A stretch of DNA of 62,937 bases, the filler included. It is 5 parts of 5 records of this genome, joined end to end, with 100 filler letters (N's around TTAATTAATTAA, not from the genome) between each part and the next. Parts side by side here need not be neighbours in the genome. Positions count along the whole stretch, not along the records: positions 56,598 to 62,937 come from SRR22947725_1702; 4 more parts are not named here. One strand, written 5' to 3'. A program made the translations under genes and the position numbers. Below the pieces are notes generated by a model. That model had not been told where the DNA came from and did no database searches. It saw nothing but the letters and a program-made list of their open reading frames with translations. Below, piece after piece: positions 56,973 to 58,630 of the stretch (the stretch's first letter is position 1; the number at the start of each line of letters is the position of its first letter).

Positions 56973-58630
56973 GAAACATATTTTATAATACTTTTAGCTG
57001 CTTCGCGCCCTTCCCAAATTGCAGTAACAACTAAATCAGAACCTCTAACCATGTCTCCCCCAGAGAATATTTTATTATTTGAAGTTTGAAATTTTAAATC
57101 TTGTTTTTCCTCAGCAATAACAAGACCATTTTTTCTGGTTTCAATCTCAAAATCTTTAAACCAGTCTGAAGGACTAGCCCTAAATCCAAATGCCACTATC
57201 ACAGCATCGGCTTTATAAATTCTTTCTGAGCCCTTAACTGGGACAGGAACTCTTCTTCCATTTTGATCTGGCTCACCAAGATGAGTATTAACTATTTTCA
57301 CTCCTTCAACCTTCTCAGAACCAATAATATCAATAGGCTGGATATTAAATTTAAAATCTACACCTTCCTCTTTAGCATTCTGAACCTCCCTTTTAGATCC
57401 AGGCATATTTTCTTCATCTCTTCTATACAAACAGGTAACAGATTTAGCTCCCTGCCTAATTGCAGTTCTATTACAATCCATTGCAGTATCACCGCCACCT
57501 AAGATAATTACATCCTTGTCTTTTAGATCAATAAAGCCATGACTTTGTTGTTTTATATTAAGAAGATTATTTGTATTTGAAACCAAATAATCAATTGCTT
57601 TAAAGACACCTGGGAGTTTCTCGCCTTCAAAACCACCCTCTAGAGAGGTATATGTGCCCATTGCTAAAAATACTGCATCGTAATCTTTGTAAAGTTTCTG
57701 AAATGGAATATCAACTCCAATTTCTTTACCTAAGAAAAATTCAACACCCATCTCTTCAAGAATTTTTCTTCGCCTTCTAACTACTTTTTTTTCTAATTTA
57801 AATTCAGGTATTCCAAAGGTTAAAAGCCCTCCAATTTCTTCATTTCTATCATATACATGACTATGAACACCAGATCTTGTTAAAACATCAGCACATGCAA
57901 TACCTGCCGGACCTGAACCAATGATTGCAACTTTTCTATCTGTCCATTTTCTTAATGACATGTCCGGCTTCCATCCCATTTCAAAAGCTTTCTCAGTAAT
58001 ATATTTTTCAGTTGAACCAATAGTAACTGCTCCAAAACCATCATTTAATGTGCACGCACCTTCACAAAGTCTATCCTGAGGACAAACTCTTCCACATACC
58101 TCTGGCAAGCTATTTGTTGAATGACAAAGCTCAGCAGCTTCTATTATATTTCCTTCATTAACAAGCTTAAGCCAATCTGGTATGTAGTTATGAACAGGGC
58201 ACTTCCATTCACAATATGGATTACCACAATCAAGGCATCTATGGGATTGGTTTGATGCTTCTACTTGGTTATATTCATTATAGATTTCTACAAAACTAAT
58301 TTTTCTTTCATCTATTGGTTTCTTGGTAGGATCAAACCTTCCAACTTCAAGAAACTGAAAATCATTCTCAATTTCTTGATGATCAGTATATTCATCTCTT
58401 AAATTTTGTTGCTGTGGATGTGCATGAGCTTGTTGCAAAGAACTATCTTTCAATGAATTATGCCATCTGTACAACTCTTCTTTTGCTTCATTTAAATCAG
58501 ATATAGGTGCAAAAGATTTTGTTACATACTTACCATCTAGTCTTATTTTCCCATAAAAATATGGGGATTTAGGTTGAGTGAAAAGAAGCAATCCCTTCTC
58601 AATTCTATATTGTTTATTTTTATTTTGCAT
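56969..58630 (-). CDS. gltD: Glutamate synthase small subunit with ~86-aa N-terminal extension
   Basis: [60 protein letters not shown]; GltD homology starts near residue 87. Confidence 0.95.

Follow-up and report, generated by a model that had tools for sequence, protein, structure and literature searches.

The closest described counterparts of the locus considered here are enzymes that double as regulators and transcription factors built on integrase-type domains. PutA, the flavoenzyme of proline utilization, carries an N-terminal DNA-binding domain and represses the divergent putA–putP region, and BirA and NadR are other enzyme-regulators. The AP2/ERF and ApiAP2 factors belong to the AP2-integrase DNA-binding superfamily and are stand-alone transcription factors of eukaryotes. 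RbkR is described as a bifunctional kinase/regulator (PMC5397151). Here, we analyze a stretch of 62,937 nucleotides made of five contigs (the window), in which a gltD gene (56969..58630, minus strand, stop codon included) encodes a 553-residue glutamate synthase small subunit with an N-terminal extension. A first-pass annotation of this DNA had proposed that a mobile-element DNA-binding domain was domesticated on the enzyme, which could make GltD a trigger enzyme regulating glt transcription. Our sequence comparisons indicate that the gene is a conserved, selected fusion of a putatively integrase-derived domain with GltD, with a candidate operator wherever one was looked for. The reading that we favor, with a probability of roughly 60%, is that of an autoregulatory enzyme-regulator fusion, in which the arm-derived N-terminal domain would bind the repeat upstream of its own gene and GltD would feed back on its own genes.

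The protein consists of an N-terminal domain, a linker and a GltD core. TIGR01318 (gltD_gamma_fam, NCBIfam) matched residues 91 to 552 with 726.4 bits (cut-off 482.95) over model positions 1 to 465 of 467, and the Pfam domains Fer4_20 (PF14691, E 3.7e-38, from residue 111) and Pyr_redox_2 (PF07992, E 1.3e-27) together cover residues 111 to 541. A full-length model match, the order Fer4_20 then Pyr_redox_2 and an adjacent, though divergent, gltB place the protein in the GltD family. These boundaries bear out the first-pass annotation, which had GltD homology begin only at about residue 87; as it had also stated, the 86 preceding codons (58373..58630) are in frame with the first residue as their sole Met, and the peptide strings and the Q/H-rich stretch that it quoted are present in the translation. 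The core with its stop codon occupies 56969..58372, the linker (residues 63 to 86, Q/H-rich here) 58373..58444 and the integrase arm-type-like domain (residues 1 to 62) 58445..58630, all on the minus strand. Residues 1 to 86 had no match in Pfam (at E≤10) or NCBIfam. When the protein was compared with other loci by tblastn, other gammaproteobacterial GltDs (Marinobacter, Pseudomonas, Acinetobacter etc.) aligned from query residues 51 to 89 (71 of 80 loci), and the remaining nine loci, labelled SAR86 or unclassified Gammaproteobacteria/Proteobacteria, aligned from residue 1 (one from residue 7). Residues 1 to 95 were matched by 2792 database proteins at E≤1 (2818 candidates scored), with 75 to 100% identity over this segment among the 120 matches listed of the 2792. 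Judged from these alignments, conservation of the extension is far beyond chance. A phmmer search of 1.84 billion representatives with residues 1 to 86 returned 29 matches at E≤1e-3, all of 65 to 264 residues; the 16 that were read are mostly N-terminal fragments ending at contig ends, and the sole new partner was one fragment, later recognized as belonging to the indolepyruvate:ferredoxin oxidoreductase (IOR) class described below.

The contig that carries gltD (56598-62937) matches the SAR86 genome G277 (G277:C1:1180743-1187058) with 100% identity. We therefore took SAR86 as the frame of comparison, and a census of the 266 available SAR86-order genomes, of which the domain profile matched 145, found 121 GltD fusions, four of them truncated at contig ends and one (G440) frameshifted, together with 19 PetA fusions, three IOR fusions, five integrases and a few remnants or weak matches. 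The start codon position is kept in nine of nine SAR86 loci (GTG in one). Across these loci residues 4 to 58 are highly conserved, and residues 59 to 86 vary in length and sequence. Proportions of nonsynonymous (pN) and synonymous (pS) differences, obtained by the Nei–Gojobori method for 45 pairs of ten genes, averaged 0.16 and 0.75 for residues 2 to 58, 0.51 and 0.64 for the linker and 0.11 and 0.69 for the GltD core. Thus, by pN, the domain is under nearly the same constraint as the enzyme, unlike the linker. This codon pattern indicates translation of the domain and purifying selection on it. Absence or decay of the extension in relatives had been named as an outcome that would speak against the first-pass proposal, and the extension is instead conserved in 121 SAR86 species genomes. 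The same had been said of translation from an internal TTG. The window gltD does have TTG codons in frame, at residues 53, 60 and 65, but three of ten orthologues (L059, L060 and L063) have no in-frame ATG, GTG or TTG between residues 46 and 100, so that an internal start cannot be general. In G440 (L200, G440:C1:56300-59300), gltD is disrupted by several frameshifts throughout its length, the N-terminal domain included, and the upstream repeat is intact; assembly error is a more likely explanation than decay.

The structure of the domain was modeled with AlphaFold2 from an 18-sequence alignment. The model has strands at residues 6 to 11, 14 to 18, 25 to 31 and 34 to 39 and a helix from residue 46, with predicted local distance difference test (pLDDT) values of 88 to 92 over residues 10 to 60; it thereby shows the antiparallel sheet and C-terminal helix that define arm-type domains. 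A full-length model has the same N-terminal fold and pLDDT values below 50 for residues 63 to 120, which indicates that the domain forms a module of its own, joined on by a flexible tether. Isoelectric points of 9.5 to 10.1 (9.6 in the window protein) mark the domain as basic. The best Foldseek match in the Protein Data Bank (PDB) was 3jtz, the arm-type domain of a P4-like integrase (E 1.6e-2, probability 1.00, 24% identity, 62 columns), and the second, 3rmp_C, is also a P4-like integrase arm-type domain; 3ju0 and the AP2 tandem repeat 6sy0 were likewise among the top ten. VIA-align, which is independent of Foldseek, ranked 3jtz third (Z 5.9, root mean square deviation 2.5 over 59 residues).

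Sequence profiles link the domain to integrases as well. Our first profile, built from GltD-type domains plus the one fragment later assigned to the IOR class, matched a 382-residue integrase-like open reading frame (ORF) beside tRNA-Phe in a SAR86 genome (L189, E 7.4e-8); this ORF has a phage-integrase SAM-like domain, and its alignment to the GltD domain is nearly gap-free. A wider profile matched four SAR86 integrases of 408 to 439 residues (L196-L199, E 2e-5 to 5e-3), all above the PF00589 cut-off. When the wide profile was aligned by hhalign with seven PF13356 domains, which came from 6 of 151 genomes of the class, the score was 28.5 (P 5e-5, 62 columns), as against 8.6 for the reversed template and a mean of 10.1 (standard deviation 2.1, maximum 20.8) for 200 column shuffles. 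PF13356 was not found at E≤1e-8 in 61 genomes listed as relatives for the window. Scanned singly against Pfam, 2 of 13 members had PF13356 as their top family (best E 0.059), and one other family only appeared; PF20172 (DUF6538) had no match to the GltD domain in the Pfam scans. The L189 protein had no phmmer match among PDB sequences. As a lead only, the ESM Atlas feature neighbors are Tn916-type Integrase_DNA and Arm-DNA-bind clusters (0.93 to 0.95). Among proteins the wide profile had 2104 matches, of which the best 120 are all GltD or PetA. Taken with 3jtz and 3rmp_C at the top of the Foldseek matches, the links to SAR86 integrases and PF13356 sustain the arm-type, integrase-like fold that had been proposed, and the predicted descent of the domain from an integrase arm-type domain is well supported by profiles and models.

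The second component of the proposed system lies in the divergent control region between gltD and gltB, which measures 81 bp in the window (58631..58711) and 56 to 98 bp in relatives, the smallest values being possibly too low because the gltB start may have been taken at an upstream in-frame Met. The candidate operator, the direct repeat GT-GTCATAC-TGC-GTCATAC (58643..58661, minus strand), has its heptamers at 58653-58659 and 58643-58649, 10 bp apart; the core GTCATAC-N3-GTCATAC (58643-58659, minus strand) ends 12 nt before the gltD ATG. In an alignment of ten gltB–gltD intergenic regions with a mean column identity of 61%, TGTCATACTnnGTCATAC is invariant in all ten, and the gltB–gltD arrangement is identical in all ten loci. 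Allowing one mismatch at most, the repeat pattern occurs once per genome in five of five SAR86 genomes, with no occurrence of a control pattern. It stands directly upstream of the GltD fusion in 121 of 121 fusion genomes (118 exact, three with one mismatch), which are not 121 independent events, because the genomes are related. The other one-mismatch matches listed from the 266 genomes are about as frequent as those of the reversed control pattern. The distance from repeat to start ranges from 12 to 26 nt across genomes and is not a multiple of 3, so that the repeat is not coding; we rejected for the same reason the possibility that it belongs to a longer coding region extended upstream, as in 583-residue forms called by gene finders. 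A 47-residue ORF in another frame (58543-58686, minus strand) reads through the repeat, and gene callers extend gltD there in some strains; its frame relation varies between genomes, and it is therefore not conserved as a coding feature. Within gltB there is a third GTCATAC (58830-58836, minus strand), 118 nt after the gltB start, and the heptamer occurs six times in the whole window against 3.4 expected, which is not significant. The invariant repeat accompanying the fusion suggests, as circumstantial support, that GltD may be a trigger enzyme.

Related domains are found on other enzymes in SAR86. In 19 mostly small SAR86 genomes a homologue of the GltD domain is N-terminal to the Rieske subunit PetA, ahead of the twin-arginine translocation signal (L183-L188 and L190; for example, L183:1877-2671, minus strand). 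An inverted repeat, TTGAACAC ... TGTTCAA, abuts the start codon in this class, with a second copy 115 to 150 bp upstream, and these repeats were the only matches in five of five genomes searched. In three SAR86 genomes the domain is on a 1240-residue IOR-family protein (L181:1533-5258 and L182:1595-5314, both minus strand, and L201), with ATACACAG repeats upstream; the palindrome is unique in two of the three genomes, and in the third, G436, both palindrome arms are altered together (ATGCACAG / CTGTGCAT). Where SAR86 genomes lack the GltD fusion, they encode another GltD with no extension (36 to 38% identity) and a GltD-like (KGOR-like) protein of 670 to 698 residues. The latter carries an N-terminal extension in four of four genomes read (L202-L205), which matches DUF6538 in three of three scanned (cut-off 27 bits; L205 with 32, the others with 25.6 and 21), and three or four AAGGTACA repeats lie upstream of its gene. 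DUF6538 also weakly matches SAR86 integrases. At L189:1918-3268, tRNA-Phe is followed after 126 bp by the gene for the 382-residue integrase-like protein, and about five TAACACA-type repeats between the two look like the arm region of an integrative element. The PetA-type domain and the domain of this tRNA-Phe integrase are the most alike in sequence, and their half-sites are also the most alike. Each fusion class (GltD, PetA, IOR and KGOR-like) has its own private repeats upstream of its own gene. We tentatively suggest, while thinking it less probable than its negation, a SAR86 lineage-wide system of diverged arm-type domains with private repeats on GltD, the KGOR-like protein, IOR and Rieske PetA. 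On that suggestion, each enzyme may be its own sequence-specific regulator, partly replacing classical factors in a genome of 1.1 to 1.4 Mb, and assembly, Fe-S or redox state might be what the system reports.

How the GltD fusion could work follows from a single polypeptide that is both enzyme and predicted DNA-binding domain, with a candidate operator at its own gene; from this we infer DNA binding, the direction of regulation and the signal. The product has a normal gamma-type GltD core (NADPH, FAD and two Fe-S clusters), to the front of which a basic, independently folding domain of ∼60 residues is presumably tethered by a flexible linker of ∼25 residues. The domain would recognize the two GTCATAC heptamers, one helical turn apart and 12 nt upstream of its own start, and the oligomeric enzyme could supply two domains to read them. 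In this way GltD would exert feedback on gltD(–hemE) transcription, probably as a repressor, with a possible effect on gltB. Repression is favored by the position of the site over what is likely the core promoter or transcript start, and a protein bound at the repeat would have to affect both promoters, since the repeat sits in the middle of the 81-bp region. The likely signal would be the GltD pool that is unassembled with GltB, or the redox or cofactor state of the enzyme. Unlike in the colinear operons of G001-type genomes, gltB and gltD are not cotranscribed here, so that subunit balance would need some other coupling, which is what makes a free-subunit signal attractive.

Several observations weigh against autoregulation by the fusion. 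The domain lies below every Pfam threshold (that of the window has no PF13356 match at E≤10), and hmmsearch of PDB sequences with the domain profile returned no integrase and one chance-level match, to a phage tail fiber (E 0.21). In VIA-align the score of 3jtz is tied with those of unrelated small sheet-plus-helix proteins, and the fold alone is therefore not decisive. The first heptamer and its neighbors read as TGn plus CATACT, like an extended −10 element facing gltD, so that conservation may in part reflect promoter function. In the PetA and IOR classes the start-proximal site is an inverted repeat that could form an mRNA hairpin, and the two-arm change in G436 can be reconciled with a hairpin or with a symmetric protein site. 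RNA libraries of three studies yielded contigs over the extension and the intergenic region (X10 record 3, 58329-58711; X11 record 7, 58539-58849), and X4 and X6 contigs from such libraries, possibly DNA, span the whole stretch; these contigs count in favor to the extent that they are compatible with expression, but they do not prove transcription, carry no strand or transcript start and may contain DNA. Finally, the premise that this genome has few regulators stands only loosely, G277 having one strong match to a sigma-54 activator and four LysR-type helix-turn-helix matches.

Some of these observations would suit a domain that acts at the protein level, in GltB assembly, Fe-S delivery, localization or turnover, next to a repeat that is a mere gltD/gltB promoter. 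All four partners (GltD, KGOR-like, IOR and Rieske) are Fe-S or redox proteins, the first heptamer has its −10 resemblance, and sheet-plus-helix folds are common, with non-DNA-binding proteins among those tied with 3jtz. We nevertheless regard a protein-level role as unlikely: a promoter alone leaves the invariant second heptamer unexplained, as it does the distinct private repeat found only at the gene of each fusion class, the closest domains (PetA-type and tRNA-Phe integrase) share the most similar half-sites, and the domain is basic. Somewhat further down in our estimate, and decidedly improbable, is binding to RNA, with the repeat placed in the 5′ leader of the gene's own mRNA and the protein autoregulating translation or stability. 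The GltD repeats, ending 12 to 26 nt before the start, may be transcribed, no Shine–Dalgarno-like sequence precedes the gltD start, and the proximal inverted repeat of PetA and IOR abuts the ATG and changed in both arms in one genome, as a hairpin would. The GltD site, however, is a direct repeat that cannot form a hairpin, and the PetA and IOR classes have further copies 115 to 150 nt upstream or as direct copies. Moreover, the homologous integrase domains are found next to repeats adjoining a tRNA gene, a setting that points to DNA, and the folds matched are those of DNA-binding arm and AP2 domains.

Its homology to the arm domains of integrases could also mean that the module still serves recombination, binding arm-type sites and helping or blocking an integrase, for example in an inversion or cassette insertion at this locus. 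Arm-site-like repeats beside the tRNA-linked SAR86 integrase, and the inversion of gltD relative to gltB when compared with the colinear operon elsewhere, would agree with this. We consider it very improbable, as most fusion genomes show no integrase with the domain (one profile match per genome), the arrangement is the same in 10 of 10 aligned loci and no core-type sites or flanking repeats were seen there. Least probable of all, and close to refuted, is that the extension lies outside the protein, as an annotation artefact or through an internal start. The in-frame TTG codons of the window gene would permit it, but the orthologues that lack any candidate start, the coding-like constraint on residues 2 to 58 and a frame that is open in about 121 species genomes contradict it. 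Autoregulation at the DNA level thus remains the reading that we prefer.

The surroundings of gltD in the window are as follows. Its stop codon is overlapped by the ATG of hemE (ATGA, 56969-56972), a uroporphyrinogen decarboxylase gene named from its translation, of which the contig end leaves the 5′ part (56598..56972, minus strand); because of this overlap, hemE is probably cotranscribed with gltD. At one relative's locus (L062), the ORF downstream of gltD likewise starts at the gltD stop. On the other side, gltB, for the glutamate synthase large subunit, diverges from gltD and runs off the window (58712..62937, plus strand). A sigma-70-like site facing gltB (TTTAAA, 16 nt, TAGAAT, with TG before; 58670..58697, plus strand) starts 9 bp beyond the repeat and is a consensus match only; a scan for promoters returned one, fewer than the 1.8 expected from shuffles, and the site is therefore not evidence. 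A terminator-like hairpin with a T-rich tail (58548-58567, plus strand), opposite the coding strand of the N-terminal domain, is probably due to chance. The five contigs of the window are joined by N44-TTAATTAATTAA-N44 spacers (16238-16337, 23680-23779, 44303-44402 and 56498-56597). The contig preceding that of gltD (44403-56497) is 100% identical to G001, of a non-SAR86 lineage, which indicates that the assembly mixes at least two organisms. We rejected G001 and its genus as a comparison set for gltD because they are kin to other contigs of the window; GltD of that genus is only 37 to 40% identical to the window GltD, its gltB and gltD are colinear, and no match to the extension was found in G001 or its genus.

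A full-text literature search found no publication on GltD with an integrase-like N-terminal DNA-binding extension, and a search for domesticated arm-type integrase domains fused as transcription factors found nothing relevant among the papers listed. A cultured SAR86 isolate exists, and its description mentions GS-GOGAT genes, with no extension noted in the portions of the text available (PMC11582366). SAR86 are abundant marine bacteria, and the extension is conserved across many of their species genomes. Should our reading be correct, the enzyme of the first committed step of ammonium assimilation into glutamate would sense and set its own expression through a mobile-element module, and the same device would have been reused on respiratory and 2-oxoacid enzymes. 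Streamlined genomes would thereby have a compact design principle for regulation, and bacteria a counterpart to the way in which integrase-type domains were recruited as AP2 transcription factors. The idea lends itself to direct testing, with a domain of 60 residues, a candidate site of 17 bp and a natural specificity control in each fusion class.

Set beside known systems, the domain most resembles the arm domains of P4-like integrases (3jtz, 3rmp and 3ju0; PF13356, Arm-DNA-bind_3), with which it shares a small antiparallel sheet on a C-terminal helix, profile similarity over its whole length and direct repeats of a short site nearby. Unlike them, it precedes a metabolic enzyme and not the core-binding and catalytic domains of a recombinase, falls below the Pfam cut-off and is accompanied by a single heptamer pair at its own promoter region rather than by an attachment site. 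The SAR86 tyrosine integrases (L189 and L196-L199) have detectable N-terminal homology to it, and short repeats lie by L189; they differ in being true recombinases and in the sequence of their repeats. AP2 factors are likewise a case of an integrase-type sheet-plus-helix domain recruited as a regulator, 6sy0 being among the Foldseek matches, but they are eukaryotic and stand alone, and are not enzyme fusions. In PutA, BirA, NadR and RbkR the DNA-binding fold is a ribbon-helix-helix or winged helix, whereas in SAR86 it would be of the integrase arm type and the regulation is a prediction. In its overall design, however, the GltD fusion would be closest to the PutA type of enzyme-regulator: a flavoenzyme with an N-terminal, here predicted, DNA-binding domain, a short divergent region with presumed sites and a feedback logic contained in one protein.

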